The notes beneath the pieces were generated by a model. That model saw only the letters and a list, made by a program, of their open reading frames with translations. It was not told the DNA's origin and did not search any database. The position numbers and the translations under genes are program-made. 64,000 nt of DNA from a virus (lineage: Duplodnaviria > Caudoviricetes): the IMG/VR virus record IMGVR_UViG_3300023283_000076, positions 128,001-192,000 of that record. One strand, given 5' to 3'. Below, one piece after another: positions 2,020-53,979 of the stretch. Every line of letters begins with the position of its first letter. The stretch's first letter is position 1.

Positions 2020-2104
2020 CTTCGTTCTCCTGAAGTAAAGTGGAAGAACCATTTTCTTCCGTAGCCTCAAAGCACCGGCCCATCCGGTCTTTTAGAGTAA
2101 AATT

Positions 2105-2172
2105 GTCGGTAAGTTAAAGAGCTACGTTTTTTCCGAGAGTAAAAATTAGAAGGATGCTCTTTTATAGCCGAC
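2105..2172 (-). ncRNA. Y-RNA-like stem motif, copy A (5' leader of the Rot/TerD gene)
   Basis: GTCGG-CTATA-AAAGAGC-ATCCTTCTA...GCTCTTT-AACTTA-CCGAC; both stems covary with copies at 13630 and 13822; starts about 10 nt after a sigma70 -10 box. Confidence 0.75.
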
Positions 2173-2181
2173 TAGATGCGT

Positions 2182-2210
2182 ATACTAACACCATTGGTGA
2201 CTGATGTCAA
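2182..2210 (-). promoter_or_regulatory. sigma70-type promoter
   Basis: TTGACA-17-TAGTAT directly upstream of RNA motif copy A and the Rot/TerD gene. Confidence 0.75.
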
Positions 2211-2216
2211 CTCTTT

Positions 2217-2534
2217 TTAGAGTTTTTGTTCCATAATAATTTTATCATTATATAAATCATACCATATGTTGTTTTTTAATACTAGGCATATTTCTTCAGG
2301 ATGATATATAAATGTGGATTTCCATACATCATCCTTTTCTGTAAATTTATTAATTTCTTTAGCACATTGCGAGTTTTCTACTAATATTCTATCTTCATTA
2401 TTTTTCGTAATAGTATTCTTAACGGGTATGTTTTTATTATCAGTATTATTGTTGCTGCCCGCACTCTCGGCTATTAGATATAAGAAAATTATGAAAGTTA
2501 TTATTGTTATTATTAAACCGTCTTTTATATTCAT
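2217..2534 (-). CDS. hypothetical membrane-anchored protein
   Basis: 105 aa ORF with hydrophobic N-terminal helix. Confidence 0.6.
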   Translation of the reverse strand: MNIKDGLIITIITFIIFLYLIAESAGSNNNTDNKNIPVKNTITKNNEDRILVENSQCAKEINKFTEKDDVWKSTFIYHPEEICLVLKNNIWYDLYNDKIIMEQKL

Positions 2535-2571
2535 AGTATTTGTTTTATTATTATTTTATAGTATATTTATT

Positions 2572-3309
2572 TTATGTCCATAATGCATGTCTTACTTTTA
2601 CTAATCTTACTAACATTCTATCATCTTCTTCTTCCCATTGTGTTTCTAATCTAGTCATTTCATCACAATATTTTTCGAATTCTACATACTCTTGTGTGTT
2701 TTTCCATTCTTCTGAAAACATAGAAAAAAATGATTCCCGTTCTGGCATTTCAGGACACTCTGGTTCTATTCTATTAGGGCGTATTTTGGTATACCATAGA
2801 TACAGTTTTAATATTTCTTCTGCATCTTTAGATTGTACTGGGCTTTCATCACCTAAGCTAATTTCCCAGCGAAGGTGCTCCAACCCAAATTCCTTATGCC
2901 TATTTTTATTAAAACGTAAAAAACGTGGTAGGAATCTTTTCCATTTTAAAAATTCTTTCTTTTTTTCTTTTGTGTCAAATACGCAATTCATATGTGCGCA
3001 TTCTTTCTCTACATAATCTACTAATAATGAAAAACATCCATGAAACATTAATTCTGGGGCATCATGATACCTGCGGGGTAAACCTGTTTTAATTATATTA
3101 GGTGCAGAAAAAAAATATTTTATTGAATTTAAAACATCATTCTTGAACCATTTAATACGATTTATGGCGGCAATATGGGGGCCGTTTTCTACTAAAAAGT
3201 ATCTTATGGGGGCATTTTCTTTGAATTCTTTACGAAACTTACCCCATCCCTCCATGGTTTCCGCTTCTGGAGGATAATAATTCATCCATCTATTAATTTT
3301 TTTAAGCAT
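2572..3309 (-). CDS. conserved phage hypothetical protein
   Basis: 245 aa; ends in LYLWYTKIRPNR...EEDDRMLVRLVKVRHALWT, a pattern I recall from large-phage hypotheticals; downstream of a sigma70 promoter. Confidence 0.7.
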   Translation of the reverse strand: MLKKINRWMNYYPPEAETMEGWGKFRKEFKENAPIRYFLVENGPHIAAINRIKWFKNDVLNSIKYFFSAPNIIKTGLPRRYHDAPELMFHGCFSLLVDYVEKECAHMNCVFDTKEKKKEFLKWKRFLPRFLRFNKNRHKEFGLEHLRWEISLGDESPVQSKDAEEILKLYLWYTKIRPNRIEPECPEMPERESFFSMFSEEWKNTQEYVEFEKYCDEMTRLETQWEEEDDRMLVRLVKVRHALWT

Positions 3310-3335
3310 ATTATTTATCTCGTGTGTTTTTTGGG

Positions 3336-3378
3336 ATTATAACACAAAAAAAAGACACCGTCAAGGGTGCCTTTTTTA
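3336..3378 (-). terminator. intrinsic terminator overlapping a sigma70 promoter
   Basis: GGCACC-CTTGAC-GGTGTC-T8 after tRNA-Pro; the same bases form TTGACG-17-TATAAT (3336-3364). Confidence 0.65.
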
Positions 3379-3379
3379 T

Positions 3380-3456
3380 TGGTCGGACTGACAGGATTTG
3401 AACCTGCGACCACACGGCCCCCGACCGTGGGCTCTACCAAACTGAGCTACAGTCCG
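3380..3456 (-). tRNA. tRNA-Pro(GGG), C33 variant
   Basis: Acceptor CGGACTG/CAGTCCG, A73, encoded CCA, anticodon arm CACGG-TCGGGGG-CCGTG, T loop TTCAAAT. Confidence 0.85.
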
Positions 3457-4203
3457 TTAACGATGTTCTGGGTTTTCAGCTTTTTTATTTCTTCCCTCAA
3501 ACTCTTCTAAATTATTTCCTTTGTTGGGTATTCCACCGTTTTCTTTTAACATTCTGGCAAAGTGTATAAGATTCCATGCCATAAATTGAGAAGTCTTTTT
3601 AGTGTATTCATTATCCAATCCTGCACCGTCATCTCCGTATGATTTTCCGGGTCCAATTTCTCCTATCCATCCAGTGTCTACTTGTGGTGGAATTGTATAT
3701 CCAATATGACCTAAAGAATATAGTATACTTTTGGCACAGTTTTTAACTCCATCTTCGTTCCCTGTTATAACACATCCAGCAACTTTGCCATAATAAATGT
3801 ATTGACCCTTATCGTTAGTTTGACCACTCATAGAATACAATCTTTCCATGACTCTCCCCCATATAGAGCTAGGCTCTCCTAACCAAATAGGTGAACCTAT
3901 AACTAATATATCTGCTTTATTCACTTTTCCCTCAAAGAATTTGGGCCAATCATCTTTCTTAGCTCCATGTTTTGTCATATCTGGGAAGGTTCCCGGAGCG
4001 AAATCATACTCTACGGCTCTAACTTTTTCAACTTCGATACCCTCGGATTTATATATTTTTTCTTGTTCGTTGAAAAGTCTTTCAGTATGTGATCTTTTAT
4101 TATCCGATTTTAATGAACAGTTTATGAATAATACGTTCATCTTTTCTTTTGATTTGGCTTCAGTTAAATTCTTTATGCCTGTTACTTTAGATAGATCCAT
4201 CAC
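3457..4203 (-). CDS. flavodoxin family / NAD(P)H-dependent FMN reductase
   Basis: LFINCSLK...SHT, ADILVIGSPIWLGEPSS, GKVAGCVITGNEDG motifs of bacterial multimeric flavodoxins. Confidence 0.85.
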   Translation of the reverse strand: MMDLSKVTGIKNLTEAKSKEKMNVLFINCSLKSDNKRSHTERLFNEQEKIYKSEGIEVEKVRAVEYDFAPGTFPDMTKHGAKKDDWPKFFEGKVNKADILVIGSPIWLGEPSSIWGRVMERLYSMSGQTNDKGQYIYYGKVAGCVITGNEDGVKNCAKSILYSLGHIGYTIPPQVDTGWIGEIGPGKSYGDDGAGLDNEYTKKTSQFMAWNLIHFARMLKENGGIPNKGNNLEEFEGRNKKAENPEHR

Positions 4204-4231
4204 GGCGCATCCTTATTCTAATTTATTTATT

Positions 4232-4759
4232 TTAGCATGTTAAGTTTTTTACAATTTGATCAAGATATTCCCGGTTTTGCAGCTTTTTTTGTTGTTCCAT
4301 TTCATATTTAAATTTTAGTATATAATTATGGAAGTAAACGAGATGGGGTAAATATTTTTCATCATATATTTCTAGGTCATATGTAGGATAATTGCCGCCA
4401 TTATAATCCATATTTATTTTAAGTATTTCTATTTTATCCATAAAAATTTTAAAATTGTAATCATTTGGATACAATTCCACTTTATTAATAGTAAATAGGC
4501 TGAAACCAATGGACCAAACTTTTCTATGGTGGGCTAGCCTAAATTCATTAAAACCGTGTAAATATTCGAATAACGTAGAAATTAAAAATTTTGGATTTCT
4601 TCTATCAAAATAAGTCTGAACAAAAAAGGTAGCTAATGCTCCTTCCCTTCGTATTTTATCTAATTCTTCTTCTTTAAAACAAAAATCGTTAATCATGCGT
4701 GTTACGGTTGGGTCAGTTTTTGGTTCTTCTCTTTTCTTTTTTGTAAATATATTAAACAT
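4232..4759 (-). CDS. hypothetical protein
   Basis: 175 aa ORF on the coding strand, no recognised motif. Confidence 0.6.
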   Translation of the reverse strand: MFNIFTKKKREEPKTDPTVTRMINDFCFKEEELDKIRREGALATFFVQTYFDRRNPKFLISTLFEYLHGFNEFRLAHHRKVWSIGFSLFTINKVELYPNDYNFKIFMDKIEILKINMDYNGGNYPTYDLEIYDEKYLPHLVYFHNYILKFKYEMEQQKKLQNREYLDQIVKNLTC

Positions 4760-4799
4760 AATTAATTTTCTACGCTTCTTTTGCTCTATCTAGTGCCTT

Positions 4800-5024
4800 T
4801 TAACATTTGTTACAGGTATAATCGATATCAGCTTTATTATCGCAAAAGTCACACAGTGTAATGTTATTGTTATTAGCTCTGTTGAGTCTATCTGCGGCTT
4901 TATATAGACTTTTAGTCGTTACCGCTGTAAAAGGAAATGGGGTGCGTCCCCATACTATATGGTTAACTACTTCATCTGAAGGAGTTTTTTTCATTGCTTT
5001 TCCTACTATTTCTTTAGCGTTCAT
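4800..5024 (-). CDS. hypothetical protein with C-terminal CxxC/C motif
   Basis: 74 aa; HIVWGRTPFPF and CDFC...C. Confidence 0.6.
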   Translation of the reverse strand: MNAKEIVGKAMKKTPSDEVVNHIVWGRTPFPFTAVTTKSLYKAADRLNRANNNNITLCDFCDNKADIDYTCNKC

Positions 5025-5044
5025 AATTTAAATACCTCTTTAAT

Positions 5045-5181
5045 AAGTCTCCTGAAATCGTGTTACAAATGCAAGAGATTAATCTTGCTAACTCCACTGG
5101 TCGAAAGTGCTAAAACCCCAGTTTCATTGTCATTACATACCCTCGATTTCCCTGACGCACTTCATCTTCGGTTGGAGACTT
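5045..5181 (-). ncRNA. candidate structured RNA (unassigned)
   Basis: Nested stems AAGTCTCC/GGAGACTT, GAAATCG/CGATTTC, CTGG/CCAG, GCAAGA/TCTTGC plus possible pseudoknot AAGTGC/GCACTT in an intergenic gap. Confidence 0.5.
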
Positions 5182-5187
5182 GGGAAA

Positions 5188-5547
5188 TTAAATATCTATT
5201 CTTCGCAATAACTCAAGTAAACTATTATTTATAGAATATATCTCATTTTGGATATATCTAAGTTTTAGAGAAACATTAGAGTCATTATGTGTTTCATCAT
5301 TTTTTTGATCTTGTTTCTTTTGTTCTTTATTTATGTCAGGAATCAGTATATCATTCAGACTATTATATAATTCATCTCTAATATCAGCTAGGTGTTCCAC
5401 TTGTTCTGTCAGATGTGTGATATTCACTGTGATAGAACACGCATCTTTATCTTCTGGAGTGTCTCCATAGGATATGGTTCCCTCAAACGCTTCGGCTTGT
5501 GTTGGTTTTTGTCTATAGGTTTTTTTTGTTAAATCATTTTCATTCAT
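5188..5547 (-). CDS. hypothetical protein (coiled-coil)
   Basis: 119 aa ORF with AAGG RBS. Confidence 0.6.
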   Translation of the reverse strand: MNENDLTKKTYRQKPTQAEAFEGTISYGDTPEDKDACSITVNITHLTEQVEHLADIRDELYNSLNDILIPDINKEQKKQDQKNDETHNDSNVSLKLRYIQNEIYSINNSLLELLRRIDI

Positions 5548-5680
5548 ATTAAAATATCCTTAATTTATTTTTCTTGCGAATGTTCTTTCTTTTATGACCT
5601 GCACTAATTAATCTCGATATCGTTCAGAAAGCATATATGTAAAAATTTAGATAGGGTGCATATTAAAACTTTCTTACATT

Positions 5681-5905
5681 TTACTTTAAGCTTCTAGCTA
5701 GAAGCTCACCGTTTTCTTGGTCGCTAAATTTATCCCATCCTGAACCTGTTCTAATTTCCATAGATTCAACTAAATCTATAGATTGAACATGGTTAGCTAA
5801 CTCTTCTCTATAATGCTGCTCAGTTTCATCTTCAAAGGGTTCACGGAATTCATGGACCCTTGCTGCAGATTTTAGTGCCTTCATATTTGGAAAATTCATT
5901 GGCAT
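5681..5905 (-). CDS. conserved phage hypothetical protein
   Basis: MPMNFPNMKAL...HEFR...YREELANHV...ESMEIR; GGAG RBS; TTGACA-17-TATTAT promoter at 5938-5966. Confidence 0.65.
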   Translation of the reverse strand: MPMNFPNMKALKSAARVHEFREPFEDETEQHYREELANHVQSIDLVESMEIRTGSGWDKFSDQENGELLARSLK

Positions 5906-5971
5906 TTTTATTTCTCCTTTTATTAGCGTGTAAGGGTATAATATAGTAATCGTGGAGAGATGTCAAGGGGG

Positions 5972-6047
5972 TGGTGGCGATAGTAGGACTTAAACCTACG
6001 ACCTCTTCCGTATGAAGGAATTGCTCTGTCAACTGAGCTATATCGCC
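5972..6047 (-). tRNA. tRNA with CAT anticodon (elongator Met or Ile2)
   Basis: GGCGATA/TATCGCC acceptor, loop TTCATAC, T loop TTTAAGT, CCA encoded. Confidence 0.8.
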
Positions 6048-6058
6048 ATTTTAAAAGT

Positions 6059-6134
6059 TGGTGCGCAACCCAAGCCTCGAACTTGGAACCTTTCGATTAT
6101 CGGTCGAATGCTCTGCCAATTGAGCTAGTTGCGC
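6059..6134 (-). tRNA. tRNA-Ile(GAT), C33 variant
   Basis: GCGCAAC/GTTGCGC acceptor, TTCGA-CCGATAA-TCGAA anticodon arm, CCA. Confidence 0.85.
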
Positions 6135-6139
6135 AGGTT

Positions 6140-6323
6140 TCGTGTATTTGTTTATTTATCAGACAAAGAGAAGACCTCTTCTTTAACGCAGCTAAAAATA
6201 TATTAACCTTCGGGCAGACGGAGCTAGCTTGTGGAGTCCAAAATAAGACTGAATCTCCTGTATGGGGCAATGCACACGACTGTGAAACAAGAATCCCCTT
6301 GCTTTAGCGAGGGGAGTTGTCAA
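6140..6323 (+). mobile_element. IS200/IS605-family remnant (TnpB C-terminal stub plus right end)
   Basis: Translation REDLFFNAAKNIL resembles the TnpB D-x-N-A-A-x-N-I motif; followed by hairpin GAATCCCCTTGCTTTAGCGAGGGGAG and TGTCAA end (6291-6323). Left boundary approximate. Confidence 0.7.
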
Positions 6324-6534
6324 TGCTACTAACAGGCGGGAATATATGCCATACTACACTCCGGGGGCAGCTTCTTTAAAAGCTTTTTCAAAGTTTTTTG
6401 ATAGGGATTCTATAAGTTCTTCTTTTTCTTCTAAAAACTTTTTGTATTTTTCTTTCAGTTGATTATCCATAGTCCAGATTTCTTATTAAGTTGCAACATG
6501 ATACAGTAAAATAAGTATATTGTCAAGGGGGAAT

Positions 6535-6610
6535 TGGAGCGGCTAAGGGGAATCGAGCCCCTGACCTCAACTTTGGCAAAGTTGCGCTCTACCTACTGAG
6601 CTATAGCCGC
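6535..6610 (-). tRNA. tRNA-Gly(GCC)
   Basis: GCGGCTA/TAGCCGC, U73, CAACT-TTGCCAA-AGTTG, CCA. Confidence 0.9.
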
Positions 6611-6615
6611 ATATA

Positions 6616-6813
6616 TTAAACATATATCTTATCGTTCTTTTCTTCTTCTTTTAAAATATCATAAACAGAAAGCGGAGATCCTGAATTTTTTAGATTTTGC
6701 TCCATTACGCCAATAAAATCCGTTATATGATCATCCGGTATAGAATGGACAAATTTTCTAACTCTGTTCTCTGCTTCCATACGCTTTTTAGTGCTCGTAT
6801 CTGCTATATGCAT
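6616..6813 (-). CDS. hypothetical protein
   Basis: 65 aa ORF on coding strand. Confidence 0.45.
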   Translation of the reverse strand: MHIADTSTKKRMEAENRVRKFVHSIPDDHITDFIGVMEQNLKNSGSPLSVYDILKEEEKNDKIYV

Positions 6814-6860
6814 AATCGTAAATCCGTTGTTTTTGTATTTTTCATATAATATTTATACAA

Positions 6861-7169
6861 TTATGTGATAGAGTATGAAAAAAATGGAAGGAATACGGGG
6901 AATTGAACTCTTATACTGATATCCCGGAGTTTGAATCCAGTTTCCAGCCATTTTGCGATAACTTCTTCGATAGAACCGCCATGCATTTCAGCATCACACC
7001 CCCCAGCTAAATCAAGACACCGTATAACCCAACAAGTCCCATCAGTATCTAATCGCTCTTTAGGGCCCACATATATTTTACCAATTTCTTTATGCGGACG
7101 CCAGTATGCTCCACTAGGGTGGATTGTATCCCCGTCTTTTACATCTGGAATCTTACCACAAAGGGGCAT
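6861..7169 (-). CDS. hypothetical protein
   Basis: 102 aa ORF about 100 nt downstream of wcaG-like RNA copy 1. Confidence 0.5.
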   Translation of the reverse strand: MPLCGKIPDVKDGDTIHPSGAYWRPHKEIGKIYVGPKERLDTDGTCWVIRCLDLAGGCDAEMHGGSIEEVIAKWLETGFKLRDISIRVQFPVFLPFFSYSIT

Positions 7170-7271
7170 TATTTTAATTTAATATGTTGTTTATTCATTT
7201 AATTCACCTGTTGTTTATTTTCATATTCGAAAAATACGGTCCGCTGAATTTCTGGCCCTTCCGTAAATAAT

Positions 7272-7383
7272 TGTGCGCTCTAACTGCTTTAACCGCTCGC
7301 CACACCCACGAGCTTCTGGTCTTGGCCACACCACTAGCCTCAAGGATTCAGGTTTAGCGCACACTACTACAATCCTTTGTTCG
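7272..7383 (-). ncRNA. wcaG-like pseudoknotted RNA motif, copy 1
   Basis: Near-repeat of 12588-12697 with compensatory changes: P1 AAGGATT/AATCCTT, pseudoknot TGTGCGCT/AGCGCACA, hairpin GCTCG/CGAGC, two GGTGTGG loops; promoter TTGCAA-17-TATAGT at 7400-7428. Confidence 0.7.
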
Positions 7384-7429
7384 ATAAACTGCAATGGTTA
7401 CTATATCATCTTGTAACAACATTTGCAAG

Positions 7430-7500
7430 TAGTTTGTCAGGATTTGAACCTACGAATGCGGACTCCGAAGGCCCCGCTGCATTTAATTGCCCGAGGTACT
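7430..7500 (-). pseudogene. degenerate tRNA-Arg(TCG)-like sequence
   Basis: Anticodon-like arm around CTTCGGA and T arm GTAGG-TTCAAAT-CCTG, but no good acceptor stem, D arm or CCA. Confidence 0.4.
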
Positions 7501-7759
7501 AAATCTTTCCATTCACAATCAATCTGAACATAAATTCACTTACATTCACATGTATATTTACTTTTGGTTGCATTAAAGAAAAATCTAAAAGTTCACAAAA
7601 TTCTTTAATAGATCTTTCTGCGTATTCTGTAAATGTTCCTTCCGTGCCGTCCATTTTTATATAAGTAGCTTCTATATCATCTAAATGTTTTAGACGTTCA
7701 ATAGCCCTTTTTTTAAATTGTAAAATGCTTGATTGCGATGTTAATGTTATACTATTCAT
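7499..7759 (-). CDS. hypothetical protein
   Basis: 86 aa ORF with AGGA RBS. Confidence 0.55.
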   Translation of the reverse strand: MNSITLTSQSSILQFKKRAIERLKHLDDIEATYIKMDGTEGTFTEYAERSIKEFCELLDFSLMQPKVNIHVNVSEFMFRLIVNGKI

Positions 7760-7844
7760 TTTGTATATCCTATTTTTAAGGATATTATAACATGAATATA
7801 TTTTATTTGCAATGTTTTACTGTATTGTGCCGTTTATGCTAAAT

Positions 7845-8561
7845 TCAAATCGTTTTCCACCAATCTATTGAATTATATTTTTTTGTTTGGGTTATATGAT
7901 TGTTTTTATATTTTTTATACAGTGTTTCATTAAACGTTTTAATCGGCTTCAAGTAGCCTTTTTTATGTGCTACTACTATTCTTTTTTTGCCTTGTTCTGC
8001 GGCTTGAGCCGATACTAATATGTCGTCCATATAATAATAGCCAAATTTATTTATGTCTATTATTATATTGTTAGTGTTCCAGCAACTAACGCCGTTTCCT
8101 ATAACTTCCACTTCTCTATCTTTACAGTTTTCTGCGTTAAAATGATAATATTCTTTATAATCTCTAAAATAATTTTCTATCTTTCTTTCCTTTGGAAATT
8201 TTCTTCCATGGTATGAAACAATTACGTTATCATTGTACTCGTTTAATTTTTTTATACTATAATTTACGTATCCTGCTGGATAAAGTATATCATCATCTAT
8301 ACAAAAATAATACTCATTTGGACTGGTTGCCCAAAAAACCTTTCCACTAGATTTTAGATCAGCGCCTTGATATGTGTATATTTTGTCTCTTTTGAATTCG
8401 TTTGGTATAGATTTGAAATTATTGAGATATAATCTAATATATGATACTTGATTATATATTGAGTTTAATACTTTGGTGGCACTATATAATCTTTCTGGAA
8501 CAGTTGCCATATTAGCAGATATTTTCATGTTATTTGTATAACCCCTTTTTATGTCCAACAC
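7845..8561 (-). CDS. GT-A fold glycosyltransferase
   Basis: ANMATVPER...YFCIDDDILYP...MDDI; DxD motif. True start may be an internal Met. Confidence 0.75.
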   Translation of the reverse strand: MLDIKRGYTNNMKISANMATVPERLYSATKVLNSIYNQVSYIRLYLNNFKSIPNEFKRDKIYTYQGADLKSSGKVFWATSPNEYYFCIDDDILYPAGYVNYSIKKLNEYNDNVIVSYHGRKFPKERKIENYFRDYKEYYHFNAENCKDREVEVIGNGVSCWNTNNIIIDINKFGYYYMDDILVSAQAAEQGKKRIVVAHKKGYLKPIKTFNETLYKKYKNNHITQTKKYNSIDWWKTI

Positions 8562-41474: not shown

Positions 41475-43127
41475 TTATTTATGTTTATATTCATATACTT
41501 TATTTCCACAATCCCATATTCGCAAAAATCTATTGGCTAACATATTCTCATACTCTGAAAGACTAGGATCAAATTCCTCCAAGAGACCCTCAAGCTTATG
41601 TTTTTGATACTTATTTCGAGATTCTAGAATGCGTTCTTTGGGTTTAAAGTATTTATAATTTGGTGCGGATTGGCCAATTAATCTAAATCCATTCTTTTCA
41701 TATATACTACCATCAAAAAATGCAATATCACAGTAAGATATCACACTATTAAAAGAATTGTTTTCTTTAAAGTGCGTCATTAATTTAGGAAATGCTCCGT
41801 TAACTATGGTTCCTTTTCTGTTGGCAAATCGACATAACTCGAAATCGTGATTTTTAGAAAATCTCGGCTTAGAAAATGTCATTACTGATACTAATTCGTT
41901 ATTGTGTAGCAACCCGTACCGTATTTTTCCTTGGAATGTATTACCTTGTAAATGATTTAAATCTAAAAAATTTTTACTTTCGGTAGGAGTAAGTTCTACT
42001 ACTTTACATTTCCTTGCTGCCACAGTTTCTCTGGCTTTTCCAAGCCTAATGGATATCAAACTTTTAATTATATCATGTTTAAATTCCCAATCATATTCTG
42101 ATATATGAATTAGAGAATAGCCTTTTTCATTAACTGCTTTAGTTTTTTTAAGATGATAGTTCTTATGTTTATACAAATCACAGTGCCAGAATAGTCCATT
42201 ACACTCTATAGCAAGCTTTTTACTAGGAATCACTATATCTAATTCCATCGGAGCTATTAACCTTCTATCCGATTTAATTGTGTTAAGCCCAAGTTCATCG
42301 ACAAAATCAGCAATTTCAATTTCAAAATCGCTCGATTTCGACAACAAAGTTTTTAATTTTTGAATATTAGATAATAGTCGGGTTTCAATGTAACCGTCTT
42401 TGGTTTTTATGGTTATGGGTTTGTGGACCCCTTCATACTCTTCTTCTTTGCTTAATAGTTCTCCTCCCTTGGACTCTACCAATTCTTTTACCACGGAATA
42501 TGACAGACGCTGATTTTCACGTCTTTTTTGTAAACAATATTCTTTTGAATATAACTTTTGTTGCTTGCGTATATATGAAATCTTTTTTTTCTCTCTTACG
42601 CCGTCAATCGTCTCTACTAAAAGAGGAGCATCCCATCCATTATATTCTGTTGACAGTAATTTACCGCCACGCATTTCAACTTCTTTTTTTATTTCGTTTA
42701 AGGTGGGTTTACTACCTCTAAGAGAAAGGGATTCACTTTGTGGCGATAGTTTTCCTAGTTTTCTTATACTATTTCTTATACTAGTCCACGTTCTTTCATT
42801 AATTTCACCGTTTGGAAATTGTATTTTGATTGGAGTGATATCGTTTACGTATGTTTTACTAACAAGTTTAACGTTATAATCTTGTAATTTTTTCTTTATT
42901 TTTTTCAGAGATTTTTCTCTCTTTGAATCTGAAAGACTTTTTATCTGTTCTGGTTTGGGTTTTAATGTTTTTGTTTTTCGTATATTCACCAGTTTTCTGG
43001 TTTCAATATTATCTCCTATTTTTATCAACAAGTCTTGATGGACTCCATTATATTCAGTTGACAAAAGTTCCCCACCTTTCGATTTTATTATTTCATCTAC
43101 TTCACCAATTGTCAACTTTTGGGGCAT
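41475..43127 (-). CDS. Hef-like homing endonuclease with N-terminal repeats
   Basis: Four (K)GG.LLS..Y repeats, ELDIVIPSKKLAIECNGLFWH nuclease core, ARKC...FLDLNHLQG...ELCRFA...RIWDCG tail. Confidence 0.75.
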   Translation of the reverse strand: MPQKLTIGEVDEIIKSKGGELLSTEYNGVHQDLLIKIGDNIETRKLVNIRKTKTLKPKPEQIKSLSDSKREKSLKKIKKKLQDYNVKLVSKTYVNDITPIKIQFPNGEINERTWTSIRNSIRKLGKLSPQSESLSLRGSKPTLNEIKKEVEMRGGKLLSTEYNGWDAPLLVETIDGVREKKKISYIRKQQKLYSKEYCLQKRRENQRLSYSVVKELVESKGGELLSKEEEYEGVHKPITIKTKDGYIETRLLSNIQKLKTLLSKSSDFEIEIADFVDELGLNTIKSDRRLIAPMELDIVIPSKKLAIECNGLFWHCDLYKHKNYHLKKTKAVNEKGYSLIHISEYDWEFKHDIIKSLISIRLGKARETVAARKCKVVELTPTESKNFLDLNHLQGNTFQGKIRYGLLHNNELVSVMTFSKPRFSKNHDFELCRFANRKGTIVNGAFPKLMTHFKENNSFNSVISYCDIAFFDGSIYEKNGFRLIGQSAPNYKYFKPKERILESRNKYQKHKLEGLLEEFDPSLSEYENMLANRFLRIWDCGNKVYEYKHK

Positions 43128-43133
43128 AATTAA

Positions 43134-44537
43134 TCATCCGTCTACGTTTTTAGTAACCTTATCTAACCATCCATTAGATTTACTATGAGGCCACACAGTA
43201 TACGTGCTTGGGGCTATGCTTGACAAGAAGATAAACCTATAATCAATAAATCCATTGTCACCAGTTACATATTTTTTAAATTCTGGTCCTGATAAATCTT
43301 TTCTATGTATTTCATTACCATCTGCATCATGTGCACCAACAAAGCAAAAGTCTATGTCATCCAATACTTTACTATTATTAAATATCGAAGGAAATTCGTT
43401 CTTGTGTGTGCATATTCTTACATCATTAGAACGGGCAAATGAGTCTTTCCATTCTTGTTCATTATTATATGGATAATTAACTGGGGGTTCTTCTTGATCT
43501 AATGTAGGTTGCTGTACGCCTCTATGTTCAAAACTAATACCAGCATACTCCTCATATTGTCGTAATGTTCTTTCATTACCAAAGCCATATTTCCCAAAAT
43601 CAATTTGATTGGGGTCTTCGCCGTCCATTCCAAACAAAATTCTATTTCTTTTATGACACATATTATTTCTTTCTACCCAATCCTTTTCTACGTTGCCTTT
43701 CTTTTTATTTATAGTTGTGTGGTCATCCCATACTTTGGTTCTACCTTTTCTGGTATATTCGTGCCATATCAATAACTTATGTGGTGTAAACAAATCATAT
43801 CCATGCGTATATGCCCTAGTAGCTATTGAGATTTCTTCTCCATGAAAAAAATAATATGGATCATGTTGCACATCTTCTGCAAACGATCCATCAGCGAAGC
43901 AAAAATGGCCAGAGTAAAATCTAGCACGTTGAGGTTTATCACGCTCTTTCCAATTTTTCATTTCAGATGGTATAAAGAACACTGCACCTTCTGGTATAAA
44001 CCTATCAAAGTTTGTTTGCCATGGTATTTGTACTCTTCCATTAGGATCATTTTCAGGGTTATATGATGGAATGTACCCTGTTAAAATAGGTTTCGGTGTT
44101 TTTGTAGTTCTAACACTTTCTAACAGTTCTATTAATTCTTTATCCCAATTTTCTATAAATCTATGATGGGAATCTAGTTGTAGAGTATATTTTTCTTTGT
44201 TATATTGTTGTTGAATTAAATTTCTAGCCCAGCATGTCCCTTTAGTTTCTGTATAATGTAAATCTATAAGATTAACATATGCATTATCCTTCATCAATTC
44301 TATAATATTAAATTCTTTATCTTTTCCATCAATGTCGGTACATTCATATACTCGATATCCTTGTATATCATAGCCTTGATCTAAAAAATCGTCTATGGAT
44401 TGCTCATCACCATGTTGCCAATTTACTACTACATGTAAATTTTCCGGGTGTGCGCTGTTAGATATCAAACTTTTTAGCGTGGGTATAAGTTCTGGATCTC
44501 TGTAACTTGCTATTTGAACAAATATAGTGTTTTTCAT
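43134..44537 (-). CDS. GT60-type polypeptide GlcNAc transferase
   Basis: IFVQIASYRDPEL, GTCWARN, LQLDSHHRF..WD, FYSGHF, FHGEE...RA.THGYD. Confidence 0.85.
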   Translation of the reverse strand: MKNTIFVQIASYRDPELIPTLKSLISNSAHPENLHVVVNWQHGDEQSIDDFLDQGYDIQGYRVYECTDIDGKDKEFNIIELMKDNAYVNLIDLHYTETKGTCWARNLIQQQYNKEKYTLQLDSHHRFIENWDKELIELLESVRTTKTPKPILTGYIPSYNPENDPNGRVQIPWQTNFDRFIPEGAVFFIPSEMKNWKERDKPQRARFYSGHFCFADGSFAEDVQHDPYYFFHGEEISIATRAYTHGYDLFTPHKLLIWHEYTRKGRTKVWDDHTTINKKKGNVEKDWVERNNMCHKRNRILFGMDGEDPNQIDFGKYGFGNERTLRQYEEYAGISFEHRGVQQPTLDQEEPPVNYPYNNEQEWKDSFARSNDVRICTHKNEFPSIFNNSKVLDDIDFCFVGAHDADGNEIHRKDLSGPEFKKYVTGDNGFIDYRFIFLSSIAPSTYTVWPHSKSNGWLDKVTKNVDG

Positions 44538-48381: not shown

Positions 48382-49125
48382 TTATGTTTCTGGAAAAATA
48401 TACATGCTAAGCCCATTAATTTTTAATAGCATTATACCTTTTTCTGATATTTGTATTTTTATTTTTTCTTTTTCTTTGCCTGATTCATTTAATAACGGAA
48501 AGATTATTTTAAAGTTATATTTAACAGAGAATGATTCAGGTGCATTTGTGTCTATGATTTTGTATGAATCTGTTAGTTCTTGTGTTAATACATCTTGTTC
48601 TATATCTGTTATTTCGCAATTAACTGTTCCGCTTTCAGTAGTATAAAATTTTAACTCTTTAGCACCCATTGCTGATATTCCACTATTGAGTAATCTTAAA
48701 TCATCTGATTTTATATTAAAGGAATAAAAAATAGGTTTTTTGAATTTTTTAGGTAATCCCTTTTCCGTAAGTATTGAAGTATTAAAACTAACAGAAGTCC
48801 GCTCTCCTTTTAATCGTAATTTTGATACGATAGTAGTTTCATCATCTAAAGTTTTTATATCTGCATACAATTCATACGGTATCTTAGATTTCTCGAACAT
48901 ATTAAACCTAGGATATAATGATTGAACTCGGTTGATATAAAGAGTATCAAATTCTAAAAAATCAAAATTGCCGGGTTCTATTAAATAGACCGCCTTTTCA
49001 TCTTGTTTAGCCCGGATACCATGCTTATCAATCATTAGAGATTTAATATCTACCAAATTGCAATATTTAATTGCAAACGCTATTATATCTTTACTTTTTT
49101 CTGATAGTTTAACCATTTTATTCAA
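48382..49125 (-). CDS. putative DNA polymerase sliding clamp (gp45-like)
   Basis: 247 aa directly after the polymerase; ISEKGIMLLKING.SMYIFP end; sequence similarity weak. Confidence 0.55.
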   Translation of the reverse strand: MNKMVKLSEKSKDIIAFAIKYCNLVDIKSLMIDKHGIRAKQDEKAVYLIEPGNFDFLEFDTLYINRVQSLYPRFNMFEKSKIPYELYADIKTLDDETTIVSKLRLKGERTSVSFNTSILTEKGLPKKFKKPIFYSFNIKSDDLRLLNSGISAMGAKELKFYTTESGTVNCEITDIEQDVLTQELTDSYKIIDTNAPESFSVKYNFKIIFPLLNESGKEKEKIKIQISEKGIMLLKINGLSMYIFPET

Positions 49126-49163
49126 TGTTTCCGTTATCTTATTGATTGTGACATTATACAGGC

Positions 49164-50114
49164 TTACTCATCAAATTCCAATACTTCATCTGCCAACACA
49201 TTTTTTTCATTTGGAACTGGTTCCCCAATTGCATCTAATATGTTCTTTATGGGTTTGTCAACCAAGCTTAAAAGTTGTCTATCAACGTCTATGTATGGTT
49301 CTAAATTTTTCCACCATTCAGGTATTAATTGTAAATCTACAGGAAGTGCAATTGCATTAAATTTCCCAAACGTTTTTTTCTTATGAAAATATAATTTTTT
49401 TACCTTTTCACCTGAACGTATTTTAATAGATTGTCCATCATTATATTTTGTCAAACATATATTATAAAATATACTAGCCTTTGCCATATGTGGTATATTT
49501 GCTTCTTTGTCATTATTAAAAACATTGGTATATTTTTCTATTGAATTGACTCCAGAGGGAACACCTAATTCTAATACATCTCGTTGTTTTAAATCTCTTT
49601 TAAACTCTACAATATCTTTTTTTACTGTTTTCCATGATTCTCCTTTCAAAAATCGTTCAAAAAAATTAGTTAATGTTTTTCGTATATATTTTGGAAGGTT
49701 CGTCTTCTTTATCTGTAAGCCCATAACTTTCATCTCATCAACTGGATTGCCATCAAGGTTTATGAGATGCAACAAATAATGTTTTTTTGCTACAAATATT
49801 CCTCTATCTGAAATTACCTCTTGTTCGGCTATTATATAATTTTTTCTTTTTTCATCACAATGAAACGCCTTTTGCATAAATTTCGGAAAGCTATTGTTTA
49901 CCAATTTACATACTGCCCCTGCAACGGCACTTGAGTTTTCTTCATTGTCTGCCCCGGTGATGAAATAAATACTGTTATGTACTAAGACATCATTAGCCAC
50001 AAAAAATGGATATTTTTCATCTTTCATTACAACATCATATACATAATCTTCTTCATCTAATAATATTTTTTCTATTGTTTTTACTTTTGACCTTTCAATG
50101 ACTGTATCATCCAT
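49164..50114 (-). CDS. gp43: family B DNA polymerase, C-terminal gene (IntC plus C-extein)
   Basis: 47 aa IntC ending FVANDVLVHN, then SIYF; KKHY, KVMGLQ palm/thumb motifs; GAGG RBS. Confidence 0.92.
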   Translation of the reverse strand: MDDTVIERSKVKTIEKILLDEEDYVYDVVMKDEKYPFFVANDVLVHNSIYFITGADNEENSSAVAGAVCKLVNNSFPKFMQKAFHCDEKRKNYIIAEQEVISDRGIFVAKKHYLLHLINLDGNPVDEMKVMGLQIKKTNLPKYIRKTLTNFFERFLKGESWKTVKKDIVEFKRDLKQRDVLELGVPSGVNSIEKYTNVFNNDKEANIPHMAKASIFYNICLTKYNDGQSIKIRSGEKVKKLYFHKKKTFGKFNAIALPVDLQLIPEWWKNLEPYIDVDRQLLSLVDKPIKNILDAIGEPVPNEKNVLADEVLEFDE

Positions 50115-50549
50115 TTTATAGTTTCCTCTTATGGTTTTTTGTTTATCTTTTTTATAATCTAATTCCCAAACTGTTCGGTATCACTCTTTAAAAGTTATGA
50201 AAATATCTTTTTCTGACAGTTCTGCTGCTTTTATAGTAATAAATTTACCGTTTCTTTCTACTACAAGAGAATGATCTTCTGTTACAGTTACTTCTTTTCC
50301 ATTATCTAATGTTATTTTATATAATGGTTTTTTAACTTTATGTCTATATACAGTAAGTACTTGTTTAGTTATCTTTTTCTTTTGTTCTGGGTTATAACAT
50401 GGCGAAAAGTATTCATCATTATTGAATTTAATAATTTGTTTGTTGTTCTTATCAGTAAACACTCCATGCTTGTCGGAAAGATAATCAAACCAATTTTCTA
50501 TTGTTTCATTTTTACCATTTATAGTTATTATAGAATCTTTTGTAACACT
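49974..50549 (-). mobile_element. split intein (IntN 50184-50549, IntC 49974-50114)
   Basis: Inserted in YGDTD|S; Ser1, TxxH block B, terminal His-Asn, Ser+1; stop codon and new start between halves; no intact endonuclease. Confidence 0.88.
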
Positions 50550-52340
50550 ATCAGTATCACCATAAATTATTGATTCTGATGGAAATTTATATTCTCCATC
50601 TAATGATTTTGCAATTTGTTTAGCCATATGCAATAAAATTTCTCTACCCGTCTTGGTTGTAGATTCTGCTATTCTCACGTCAAAAAACCTAAAGTATTTG
50701 TTGCCAAAAACACCATACATGGAGTTTAACTGAATCTTTTTTAAATATTGAATATTATCATAGTATTCCTTCTGTTTTTCATATGCAGGATCTTTGGTTT
50801 CCCCATATTTTTTTGTCATTTCAGCTTTCAATTTTTGATATTTTATTCTATCCTCAAACCAACTAGTCAATATGGATGGAATGATACCTTCTTGTGATTG
50901 GTCAAATATTGTTCCATGTGCTGATATACTCCATTTATTATTATGGAGATATTCGTTCCATTCTGCAGCAGTCATAGTATCATCACGACCATTCTCGTAC
51001 AGTACAGTAAGCTCTACATCGTTTTTTTCCATTATGTACTCATACGCCTTATCATTTTCGAAAAATTGGCCTATGAGCGTCTCAGGCGATATGTTAATCG
51101 CTCTCATTGATGAAGGATATAGAGATTTAATATCCACTGAAGAAATCCATTCATGTAATCCAATTTGTGGTTCCAATACGAATGCTCCCTCGAATTTTTT
51201 TCCATGTTCATCTACAGAATATGGAGCATCTGGAAGTACGACTCTTTCTGGCAATTCATGCTTGCAAAAATTTAAAATAGCGGTATCTGATGTACTAACC
51301 GTAGTTAATACAGATGGGATTCTATTTGTGACCATATGCGAAAAATTGATAGCCAGATTCATATATTTAAATTTTAAATCTAACCCTTTTAGAATTTCAG
51401 TATCTCTAATATTATATTTTATAAATTGATCAAAGTCTTCTCGATATAAACGATATAAACTTTTTTCATAGTCCAATTTTTCCATACCCTCAAGTTCTTC
51501 CTCTGCTACTGCTTCTAGAGAATATGAGGACCGTTGGTTTGCGTCAAACTTCTTGACCATTTGCATAAAATCTATCCAAACCCTTCCGATTGGTTTAACA
51601 TTTATTTCTGTGGACCCATATTGTTCGACTTCTATAACACCTACATCCTGATCTATCTCAGGAAAATTCATAGCCCTTGTAGCATTTTTTCCAAATATTT
51701 TCATCAATCGGAAATAAATATATGGAGTATCAAAAAAATCGCTGTTCCAACCGCTGATAATATCAGTGTCTTCGATTTCTTCTATAAACTTAGTTAATAA
51801 TTCCTTTTCATTTTTAAAAATGTATATCTCTGCTTCATGTTCTAAATGTTCTAACTGTTCTACACTACAATTTTTCCAAGCACCCTCTTTTGGTGGTACT
51901 GCAAAAACTATAGATTTGTTTGTATGCTTATGATATAAAGCTATGGAATTTACCGGTGCGTATGGATTTGAACTACCTGCATGACCCTTTTTTGGATCAT
52001 AATCAACCTCGATATCATAAAACGTTATATTTAATTCGTCTATTGGGGCTTTATAGTAGTTGTCAGATAATATTTTTAATTCTGGAGATATATCCGATTC
52101 ATATAAGTTAACCCCACGTTCTCTAAGTCTTTTTCGTTCTTTAAAAAATTCAAACGGATCGTCAAATTCAATGTTTGTTAATTTTGCACCTTTAACAGAT
52201 TTGTACTTCTCTGTTGATTCATAATCTTCTATAAAAAAATTATACGGGGCATCGTATGTTACTAGTACCCTGCCCTGCGGGGTTCTTTCCCATACATATA
52301 CATTTTTTTTATCATTCGATGTCGCCGTAGAAATATACAT
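50181..52340 (-). CDS. gp43: family B DNA polymerase, N-terminal gene (N-extein plus IntN)
   Basis: YDIEVD, GWNSDFFD, SYSLE, YNIRD, DIKSLYPS, KIQLNSMYG, YGDTD, then 122 aa IntN (SVTKDS...VTVTEDHSL). Confidence 0.92.
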   Translation of the reverse strand: MYISTATSNDKKNVYVWERTPQGRVLVTYDAPYNFFIEDYESTEKYKSVKGAKLTNIEFDDPFEFFKERKRLRERGVNLYESDISPELKILSDNYYKAPIDELNITFYDIEVDYDPKKGHAGSSNPYAPVNSIALYHKHTNKSIVFAVPPKEGAWKNCSVEQLEHLEHEAEIYIFKNEKELLTKFIEEIEDTDIISGWNSDFFDTPYIYFRLMKIFGKNATRAMNFPEIDQDVGVIEVEQYGSTEINVKPIGRVWIDFMQMVKKFDANQRSSYSLEAVAEEELEGMEKLDYEKSLYRLYREDFDQFIKYNIRDTEILKGLDLKFKYMNLAINFSHMVTNRIPSVLTTVSTSDTAILNFCKHELPERVVLPDAPYSVDEHGKKFEGAFVLEPQIGLHEWISSVDIKSLYPSSMRAINISPETLIGQFFENDKAYEYIMEKNDVELTVLYENGRDDTMTAAEWNEYLHNNKWSISAHGTIFDQSQEGIIPSILTSWFEDRIKYQKLKAEMTKKYGETKDPAYEKQKEYYDNIQYLKKIQLNSMYGVFGNKYFRFFDVRIAESTTKTGREILLHMAKQIAKSLDGEYKFPSESIIYGDTDSVTKDSIITINGKNETIENWFDYLSDKHGVFTDKNNKQIIKFNNDEYFSPCYNPEQKKKITKQVLTVYRHKVKKPLYKITLDNGKEVTVTEDHSLVVERNGKFITIKAAELSEKDIFITFKE

Positions 52341-52405
52341 TTCTATCCATACCTCGTGTTCGTATTAGAAAGATAGAGTATATATCCTTAGTTTTTCGCA
52401 GTCAA

Positions 52406-53026
52406 TTAAATATCCCAATTCTCAGGGTTTAATTCAAAATTTTCAGGGTGAAATTCATATGGTTTTGTTGATCTTATTTGTAACCTTACTTGAGTTAATG
52501 ATCCAATATTTACAGGAGCGACACCATTTGCAAAATTGGGGGCAGTTGGAAATATGATTAGTGTTCCTCGTTGTGGTTTAAAATTTATATCAAACGTGGG
52601 AAATTCTAATTTTCCCCCATTTACTTCAAAAAGGGGATCAAAGTCTGGTCTGTCATTATGATCATTTAACCATAAAATTCCGGTAAAGTCTATTAGATTA
52701 TATCGTACCCAACCGCGTTCCCGTGTTTGCATATATCCGTCAGTTTTAACTTTTGTAGGTTGATAACCGGGTGGGTACCATTCAAACATTAAATTATGTG
52801 TCCCCAAATAAGAAGTATTGAATTTATTTTCAAGTTTATATATAACATCGTCAAACGTTTGTAGAATGCGTGTGCTATTTAAACGACTCGATAATATAGT
52901 AACTTTAGGGTTTCCATCTTGACCTTTCATGGGAACAGCTTTGTCTATTCTTAAATCTTCTAATATTCTTTCACATAAAAGTGGTGATACAAATTCTTCA
53001 ATAATTAAAAATGGTATTTCTTTCAT
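52406..53026 (-). CDS. 2OG-Fe(II) oxygenase-fold protein (prolyl-hydroxylase-like), metal ligands atypical
   Basis: IIEEFVSP, ILWLND, GGKLEFP, PQRGTLIIFP; canonical HxD and distal His not evident. Confidence 0.65.
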   Translation of the reverse strand: MKEIPFLIIEEFVSPLLCERILEDLRIDKAVPMKGQDGNPKVTILSSRLNSTRILQTFDDVIYKLENKFNTSYLGTHNLMFEWYPPGYQPTKVKTDGYMQTRERGWVRYNLIDFTGILWLNDHNDRPDFDPLFEVNGGKLEFPTFDINFKPQRGTLIIFPTAPNFANGVAPVNIGSLTQVRLQIRSTKPYEFHPENFELNPENWDI

Positions 53027-53082
53027 ATTATGTTTATATACTGTGTTATAATGTAAGTGTACTGTTATTTATATTAAAAAAA

Positions 53083-53979
53083 TTACTCTGTAAGAGTGGG
53101 ATTCTGTTCTAAAATTATACCCTCAGAAGAACTATTTCTGGCTTTTCTTACAATAAATTCTTTTAGTTCGTCTTTGCCAGAATTTTCAATTTCTACATTT
53201 AAAGATATTTTGCTTACACCATCTTCAGTACATATGCCCGCATACACTTCTCGACCCATAAATTTTAATTTTCCCATCATACATGAATCATCGATTTTTT
53301 CAAAATCTTCTACAACAATTTTATTTGCATCGCCCATATTATATTTTATAGTAGGTTTATCACTAAAGGTTTTTATAGTTATATTATTTTTTTGTTCGGT
53401 ATCATGTTCGGCGAGGGATTCTTTTACTGTTTTAGATTCGTCATCTTCTTTTGATGATTTTGCTTTTTTTTCTCCTTCGTCTTTTTTTTCTATTCCCAGT
53501 ATATGTTTAAATAGTGTTTTTAATTCATCTTTGTTCTCTGCTACCGGAATATCATTTCTATAACATACGATATCAACGTTCCCTTTTCTATAAAACTTTT
53601 TAGGACAATATACGATTACTGTTTTATCACTTTCTAATACTTTACCTAACTCTAACAACGTTATAGGTGATTTACTATCTTCTGCAAAATATATTAGTAC
53701 CGCATCTGATTTTTCTATATGATCAAGCTCCCAAGATACTTGATCATAAAATTGTGTATTTTCTATAGATTGTGTCCATGAAGGGTCCCAATCTTCTCTT
53801 CTTGGGTTATATATTGTTATCTTAACTTGTTCTGAACTACATTCTTCTAAAAATTCAGTTATTTCTTTTTGCCAATCTTCGGAATCGCCCATGTCAATAG
53901 TTCCTGCTAAAAATATTTTAACAGAATTGGATAGTGGACGTTCTCTAGTGGGAGCTTTGAATACTTTTATATTACTCAT
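53083..53979 (-). CDS. nucleoside 2-deoxyribosyltransferase-like domain fused to unknown C-terminal domain
   Basis: IFLAGTI, WQ, YNPRR..W, QVSWELDHI, SPITLLELG, FYRKGNV. Confidence 0.8.
   Translation of the reverse strand: MSNIKVFKAPTRERPLSNSVKIFLAGTIDMGDSEDWQKEITEFLEECSSEQVKITIYNPRREDWDPSWTQSIENTQFYDQVSWELDHIEKSDAVLIYFAEDSKSPITLLELGKVLESDKTVIVYCPKKFYRKGNVDIVCYRNDIPVAENKDELKTLFKHILGIEKKDEGEKKAKSSKEDDESKTVKESLAEHDTEQKNNITIKTFSDKPTIKYNMGDANKIVVEDFEKIDDSCMMGKLKFMGREVYAGICTEDGVSKISLNVEIENSGKDELKEFIVRKARNSSSEGIILEQNPTLTE

Follow-up and report, generated by a model that had tools for sequence, protein, structure and literature searches.

The family B DNA polymerase (PolB) of this phage is encoded by two adjacent genes, and the break between them falls in the metal-binding YGDTDS sequence of motif C, where each gene carries one half of an intein. 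Our analysis of the window (a stretch of 64,000 nucleotides, positions 128,001 to 192,000 of the viral record IMGVR_UViG_3300023283_000076) indicates that the element is, with good confidence, a functional and naturally split class 1 intein with serine at both position 1 and position +1 (oxyester chemistry), that it very probably splices in trans, and that it derives from a fractured gene which later lost its endonuclease gene. Inteins of this kind are already known, and several of them have been characterised (Aes123 with its CL and CLm derivatives, CP21, LCGC14, GOM-OPS-1, and PolB16). What is new here is the loss of the endonuclease gene, through a deletion whose scar can still be read, together with the membership of the intein in a sizeable and partly uncharacterised clade of Ser/Ser split inteins, which could be mined for orthogonal tools.

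The features of the locus are collected in Table 1. In the initial annotation, the upstream gene (N-gene) was described as ending in YGDTD plus a 122-residue N-terminal intein half (IntN), and both coordinates and sequence hold to the base. The downstream gene (C-gene) does open, as had been claimed, with a 47-residue C-terminal half (IntC) that ends in VHN and is followed by SIYF, a reading confirmed by translation. The same applies to the two serine nucleophiles and to the sole cysteine of the intein, which is internal to IntN (FSPCY); IntC has none. The state of the 66-nt spacer had escaped that description: N-gene, spacer, and C-gene make up one open frame of 1,066 codons, and a single TGA divides the genes.

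Table 1. Features of the split polymerase locus, in window positions; a slash in the text marks an intein-extein junction.
Feature	Position	Strand	Description
N-gene	50181-52340	minus	719 aa; ends in ...SESIIYGDTD, the 122-aa IntN, and TGA
N-extein	50550-52340	minus	597 aa; PolB portion with the exonuclease domain and the palm as far as motif C (...IIYGDTD)
IntN	50184-50549	minus	122 aa; Ser1, Cys51, Arg69-His70 (YRHKV), Thr90-x-x-His93 (TEDH)
N-gene stop	50181-50183	minus	TGA at the split point
Spacer between the two genes	50115-50180	minus	66 nt, in frame; holds the endonuclease scar and the SD-like GAGGA
Scar of deleted VSR-like homing endonuclease gene	50127-50174	minus	16 codons, TVWELDYKKDKQKTIR; matches the C-terminus of the free-standing endonuclease of relatives
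SD-like GAGGA	50124-50128	minus	9 nt upstream of the C-gene ATG
C-gene	49164-50114	minus	316 aa; ATG at 50114
IntC	49974-50114	minus	47 aa; block F VYD (Asp27), block G His46-Asn47; ends in ...DVLVHN
C-extein	49164-49973	minus	269 aa and stop codon; remainder of the polymerase from Ser+1 (SIYFITGA...)

The two exteins belong to a single polymerase. The N-extein matches the Pfam families PF03104 (E 6e-18) and PF00136 (E 8e-34), and shares 84% identity with its intein-less counterpart in L014/P0004. In tblastn searches, jumbo-phage DNA polymerases match the C-extein with their C-terminal parts, and in the polymerase of Xoo-sp13 the matches of the N-extein and the C-extein are contiguous. Joining the exteins gives YGDTD/SIYF at the junction and a protein of 866 aa (597+269). 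The closest intein-less homologue, P0004, is also 866 aa long and reads YGDTDSIFF in the junction region. A scan of 48900-52700 for promoters and terminators gave no signal above the shuffled background and, between the N-gene and the C-gene, nothing resembling a minus-strand terminator.

That motif C of the polymerase harbours a naturally split intein, as proposed, is supported by the Pfam intein model, by the relatives, and by the match to a solved split intein. IntN alone reaches 40.7 bits against PF14890 (cut-off 35.8; residues 635-716 of the N-gene), and the whole intein, read across the stop, reaches 61.2 bits (E 1.6e-17). The best PDB match of IntN by sequence is 9HTH, the cysteine-less split intein of Aes123 PolB1 (E 1.6e-11). 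IntC finds its best PDB match, a weak one, in the PolB16 intein, and its homologue in L005 matches the C-terminal part of PF14890. An AlphaFold model of the read-through product has a mean pLDDT of 81.9, with disorder confined to the linker (residues 129-151). Its top 50 fold matches in the PDB consist entirely of inteins and further HINT-type domains (hedgehog or bacterial intein-like), headed by 9HTH in its fused form (E 1.3e-14, TM 0.85 by target).

The residues expected of a class 1 intein are all in place. Ser1 directly follows YGDTD and is invariant in 12 relatives. Block B (N3) reads Thr90-Glu-Asp-His93, and the C-terminal His-Asn is followed by the +1 nucleophile (...VLVHN/SIYF). Across seven split and five contiguous relatives, the invariant positions are Ser1, Tyr-Arg-His, T-x-D-H-S-L, VYD, and L-V-H-N/S. 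The Tyr-Arg-His element corresponds to the NX motif (Tyr68-Arg69-His70 here), whose Arg/Lys-His pair is reportedly specific to Ser1 inteins (PMC10189870). Cys51 gives way to valine in L011 and is variable among the contiguous relatives, and it is therefore non-catalytic. The intein is not literally cysteine-free; judged by its sequence, it is cysteine-independent in its catalytic residues, and in this it resembles native PolB16 and GOM-OPS-1. In block F, the intein reads KYPFF, with proline in place of the histidine found in the Aes intein (GNHNFF). This proline is present in every relative of the subgroup, and the published IntC of LCGC14, an efficient splicer, appears to have it at the same position in a by-eye reading of machine-read text. 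Identity to the three closest relatives is 60-74% over the intein halves and 59-73% over the exteins. The dN/dS ratios, where dS could be estimated, lie between 0.17 and 0.24, and thus both intein halves are under purifying selection.

The two halves are also predicted to associate. When IntN and IntC, each with five extein residues, were submitted to complex prediction, the pair scored 0.78, whereas none of three controls exceeded 0.01, the mark for such predictions being one that 58 of 80 solved complexes reach and 2 of 110 mismatched pairs. Three runs agreed in at least 90% of the contacts, with partner pLDDT of 76-77. Assembly of the fragments into one domain was thus found in silico, and since similar split-intein complexes have already been solved, the prediction is to be read as likeness rather than proof. 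The net charges of the halves, +3 for the mildly basic IntN and -6 for the acidic IntC, suit electrostatic capture.

From these features we infer both the chemistry and the splicing itself. The two genes would probably be transcribed together and translated separately, the C-gene from its own SD-like site and ATG, after which IntN and IntC would associate and fold as one HINT domain. An N-O acyl shift at Ser1, aided by Thr90 and His93 of block B and by Arg69-His70 of the NX motif, would then be followed by the attack of Ser+1, giving a branched ester. Cyclisation of IntC Asn47, aided by His46, and a final O-N shift would release the intact 866-aa polymerase with YGDTDSIYF restored. In this regard, homologous PolB split inteins do splice in trans in vitro, as reported for Aes (PMC11923092) and for CP21, LCGC14, and GOM-OPS-1 (PMC12707363). 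It is also reasonable to suppose that replication would depend on trans-splicing. A single PolB gene was found in the record (a jumbo phage; 270,653 bp, 34% GC, 79% complete) and the intein interrupts the metal-binding YGDTDS motif, so that replication plausibly needs splicing. For a possible control point, also suggested in the initial annotation, no evidence in either direction emerged. A search of sequencing runs for the locus returned one DNA run, probably from the source sample, with no RNA run listed.

Relatives of the locus came from a protein search, a blastn comparison of the locus with phage genomes having returned a 106-nt match only and an IMG/VR pattern scan with the C-gene no relatives. 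The polymerase N-genes retrieved in this way are 714-746 aa long, carry the same IntN tail, and are 39-72% identical to the N-gene of the window. In all eight metagenomic relatives examined (L005, L006, L007, L011, L012, L013, L018, and P0030, the last one without DNA), an ORF of 322-358 aa is found between the N-gene and a separate C-gene of 310-315 aa; because a whole ORF separates the halves, these inteins cannot be contiguous. The split point and the Met-Asp start of IntC line up with those of the window in six aligned relatives, and the stop falls within about three residues of the IntN end in relatives with gene-separated halves. The split is thus retained in diverged relatives and is not a one-off error. 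In the window, the two genes are likewise separate, each bounded by its own signal: the TGA for the N-gene, the GAGGA and ATG for the C-gene.

The layout of the window differs from that of these relatives in one respect, as the endonuclease gene between the halves is gone and 66 nt remain in its place. The scar peptide TVWELDYKKDKQKTIR matches the C-terminus of the L007 endonuclease, TVWELDYKNDKDKTIR, with the common pattern TVWELDYK.DK.KTIR, and at the DNA level the scar shares 80-84% identity with the endonuclease ORFs of L005 and L007 at their 3' ends. In a search of the genome record with this endonuclease, the 16-codon scar was the sole match (E 2.3e-4), and no endonuclease homologue was found elsewhere in the record. 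In the relatives, the intervening ORFs carry a ROS/MucR-like zinc finger at the N-terminus and match MTES_1575/VSR-type nucleases weakly. The equivalent ORF is annotated as VSR-like in Aes508 and PTm1, and a free-standing ORF lies between the halves in five GenBank phage groups too; taken together with those of the metagenomic relatives, most of these ORFs are VSR-like.

These observations suggest an ancestor in the form of a fractured gene, with an IntN gene, a free-standing VSR-like homing endonuclease gene, and an IntC gene in succession. A later deletion of about 940 nt of the endonuclease gene would have left the 16 codons, which would still function as the ribosome-binding region of the C-gene. 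The single-TGA, in-frame layout is then accounted for, because the spacer is leftover endonuclease coding sequence and the chance of frame is one in three. The scar supplies the GAGGA and the ATG of the C-gene, which fits the proposal that the invading element provides the downstream start (PMC2677866). As regards gain or loss of the intein, the closest polymerase relative, P0004 (84-86% identical), carries no intein. A search for co-conversion tracts, by sliding extein identity to L014 (intein-less) and to L005-L007 (intein-bearing), revealed no switch near the junction, which gives no support to recent homing from a donor like L005. The linkers of the contiguous relatives contain no endonuclease-like WE.D motif, and so give no sign of the same route of origin.

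The in-frame layout raises the question of whether the stop operates as such. TGA is an ordinary stop in this phage genome. It terminates 76 of the 292 ORFs in the whole 270,653-bp record, where read-through extensions are mostly of a few codons and several end in tandem stops. Recoding of TGA, tested on the whole record, was rejected, the gain in coding density with TGA as a sense codon being below that of the TAA control. In two cases long ORFs are separated in frame by a TGA: a 467-aa ORF (43134-44537, minus strand) ends in TGA in frame with the ORF at 41475-43127 (550 aa), so that read-through would extend it by 552 codons, and a 1,624-aa ORF (190874-195748 of the record) that runs past the window end is similar, with a 295-codon extension. 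Both are probably chance adjacencies.

It is nevertheless conceivable that the element is in effect a contiguous mini-intein, its TGA being read through, recoded, or the product of an artefact or a recent mutation, so that a 1,058-aa precursor splices in cis and the 23-residue spacer is a loop at the usual endonuclease-insertion position. The single open frame would agree with this, as would the normal HINT fold of the read-through model with its disordered linker and the occurrence of short-linker mini-inteins at exactly the same position in the same polymerase family (P0028, P0029, P0032, P0035, and P0089, and likewise in Salicola phage SCTP-2). We consider it quite improbable, however, given the ordinary use of TGA, the SD-like GAGGA ahead of the ATG, and the spacer frame, which is traced to deleted endonuclease coding sequence and not to an intein linker. 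Moreover, the positions of the stop and of the IntC Met-Asp start match those of relatives with a gene between the halves. A sense codon at 50181-50183, which the initial annotation had named as the mark of a contiguous mini-intein, is unlikely, both because an independent Logan re-assembly of the probable source run, compared at contig level, is identical over 49800-50700 (about 20x depth, no variant) and because the split site is common to relatives whose halves lie about 1 kb apart. The endonuclease homology of the spacer (at the DNA as well as the peptide level), which no intein linker shares, also speaks against the idea of a newly born split intein, in which one nonsense mutation broke a contiguous mini-intein and a fortuitous internal ribosome-binding site did the rest. 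Such a birth would explain the in-frame arrangement with its one stop, but the split site and the IntC start pre-date the phage, being common to relatives down to about 45% identity, and such an origin is extremely improbable.

A different possibility is that the element decayed or became inactive after the loss of the endonuclease, leaving either a dead polymerase in a defective phage or a polymerase of two subunits that the intein halves hold together non-covalently, to be compared with gp43A/gp43B, which are split without an intein in some Aeromonas phages. T4-like phages do have PolB enzymes that are split but not spliced (gp43A/43B in the Aes508 annotation; PMC2677866), and in the present case splicing is deduced from the sequence of a metagenomic contig. 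Set against this, all the catalytic residues of the intein are intact and invariant, purifying selection acts on both halves, and the coding density is normal across the rest of the 270-kb genome. In addition, since the break lies inside the metal-binding YGDTDS, some 170 aa of unspliced intein would occupy the active site. Inactivity is thus scarcely probable, and trans-splicing by a split intein is the reading that we retain. A more speculative extension of it, which we regard as unlikely, is that the locus represents an intermediate stage, able to change from split to contiguous and back, a point mutation of the TGA or low-level UGA read-through giving a cis-splicing mini-intein. If this were so, the linker of the regenerated mini-intein would be endonuclease-derived, and if a read-through product were made, the phage would obtain its polymerase by both cis- and trans-splicing.

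Several GenBank phages carry an annotated "intein-containing split DNA polymerase precursor", and the insertion in motif C at DTD/S is the same in the phage described here (YGDTD/S), in Aes508 (CYIDTD/S), and in PTm1 (IYADTD/S). One characterised representative is Aes123 PolB1, from T4-like Aeromonas salmonicida phages, the parent of the engineered CL and CLm inteins (PMC11923092). It shares with the present intein the host protein and a typical split position (120/39 aa, as against 122/47 here). In Aes508, which has an Aes123-type locus (CYIDTD/SVVGD...ILVHN/SVY), the insertion site, Ser1, and Ser+1 coincide with those of our phage, as do the site and nucleophiles of the PTm1 intein. T-x-D-H is present in both Aes508 and the window, whereas the NX motif is Lys-His in the former and Arg-His in the latter. 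The Aes intein is about 28-35% identical to the intein described here, and the CL and CLm inteins derived from it about 30-35%. The Aes intein has no cysteine at all, in contrast to the single non-conserved Cys51, and the host polymerase of the Aes group is that of Straboviridae, whereas ours falls in a jumbo-phage clade. Between the halves, Aes508 retains a VSR-like endonuclease ORF, deleted in the window. The polymerase of Aes508 (locus 33-5355) is annotated as broken in three ways, by an endonuclease gene, an intron, and a split intein: gp43A and gp43B are separated by a GIY-YIG Seg-like endonuclease gene, the gp43B N-fragment contains a group I intron, and the VSR-like ORF stands between the split-intein halves.

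Other relatives of known activity are LCGC14 PolB2 and GOM-OPS-1 PolB2, from marine-sediment metagenomes, and CP21 PolB1, which likewise occupy the PolB DTD/S site with Ser1 and Ser+1 and have an IntN of 120 aa and an IntC of 42-46 aa (PMC12707363). Their trans-splicing was shown experimentally, almost quantitatively in the case of LCGC14 (PMC12707363), whereas the present copy is known from its sequence and its locus is without an endonuclease gene. A by-eye comparison with machine-read supplementary text suggests that the LCGC14 and GOM-OPS-1 constructs share YRHK, DHS, and "TPYFF...ILVHN" with the clade described here. GOM-OPS-1 also has one internal cysteine, which is dispensable (C57S construct). 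PolB16, at a GDTD site, is a Ser1/Ser+1 intein with an atypical split (PMC10189870). Its OarG representative (PDB 8CPN/8CPO; PMC10189870) resembles our intein in the GDTD N-extein, Ser1, Ser+1, and the histidine of the NX motif, but it is split after 15 residues (15/168 aa), while here the split is at the canonical endonuclease-insertion position. In the Klebsiella phage KP13-7 (L003, locus 3456-8219), a homologous split intein is apparently inserted two residues earlier, with Thr+1 instead of Ser+1. Its junctions read ...VIYGD/SVTGDS... and ...ILVHN/TDSVYF, the insertion point within motif C being shifted.

Fractured genes, in which split-intein halves flank a free-standing and often VSR-like homing endonuclease gene, were described by Dassa et al. 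in 2009 (PMC2677866). This layout is seen in L005-L007, L011-L013, and L018 and in the phages PA5oct, KP13-7, PTm1, Aes508, and CP21, with the endonuclease ORF overlapping the start of IntC. The locus of the window departs from the model in that the endonuclease gene has gone while its last 16 codons have been kept, and it corresponds to step III of the Dassa model, in which the endonuclease is lost and the halves are still adjacent. The endonuclease-lost state has been seen once before, at the helicase locus gp41-7 and not in PolB (PMC2677866). The scar thus provides direct evidence, at the sequence level and in a polymerase, for the loss of the endonuclease that the fractured-gene model of split-intein evolution postulates (PMC2677866), and it shows that the ribosome-binding region and the start of the downstream half derive from the invading endonuclease element.

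That cysteine-independent split inteins are rare and useful, as had been proposed, is true in general, but the PolB group has already been mined and engineered. There is demand for Ser1/Ser+1 split inteins as orthogonal ligation tools that do not depend on thiols, and the present one adds one more natural example with at least seven sequenced relatives (L005-L007, L011-L013, and L018). The clade could be screened by the published aggregation-prediction approach (PMC12707363). Neither this value as a tool nor the scar alters current understanding.

Within the same polymerase family, empty alleles (most of the matches, including Xoo-sp13 and XacN1) coexist with contiguous mini-inteins, fractured split inteins, and LAGLIDADG inteins at another site. 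Such a scattered mixture of empty, contiguous, and split states is what a mobile element usually shows. Four same-clade polymerases of 1,211-1,251 aa (P0010, P0018, P0022, and P0074) contain an intein with LAGLIDADG (PF14528). In P0010, P0018, and P0022, YGDTDSI is uninterrupted and the LAGLIDADG intein is inserted at a different, upstream site; in P0074 the scan did not find the YGDTDSI motif. As a LAGLIDADG intein sits upstream of an intact YGDTDSI, the polymerase family has at least two intein insertion sites.

Two minor observations concern the genome around the locus. An SD-like core within 20 nt upstream was found for about 36% of 230 ATG-started ORFs in a crude scan of the whole record, and the host of the phage may rely little on Shine-Dalgarno pairing. 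On the 5' side of the polymerase (window positions 52406-53979), the order is a nucleoside 2-deoxyribosyltransferase-like gene, a 206-aa ORF without Pfam match, and the polymerase; L005, L006, and L014 keep this order, and L007 and L015 have just the 206-aa ORF directly upstream of the polymerase.
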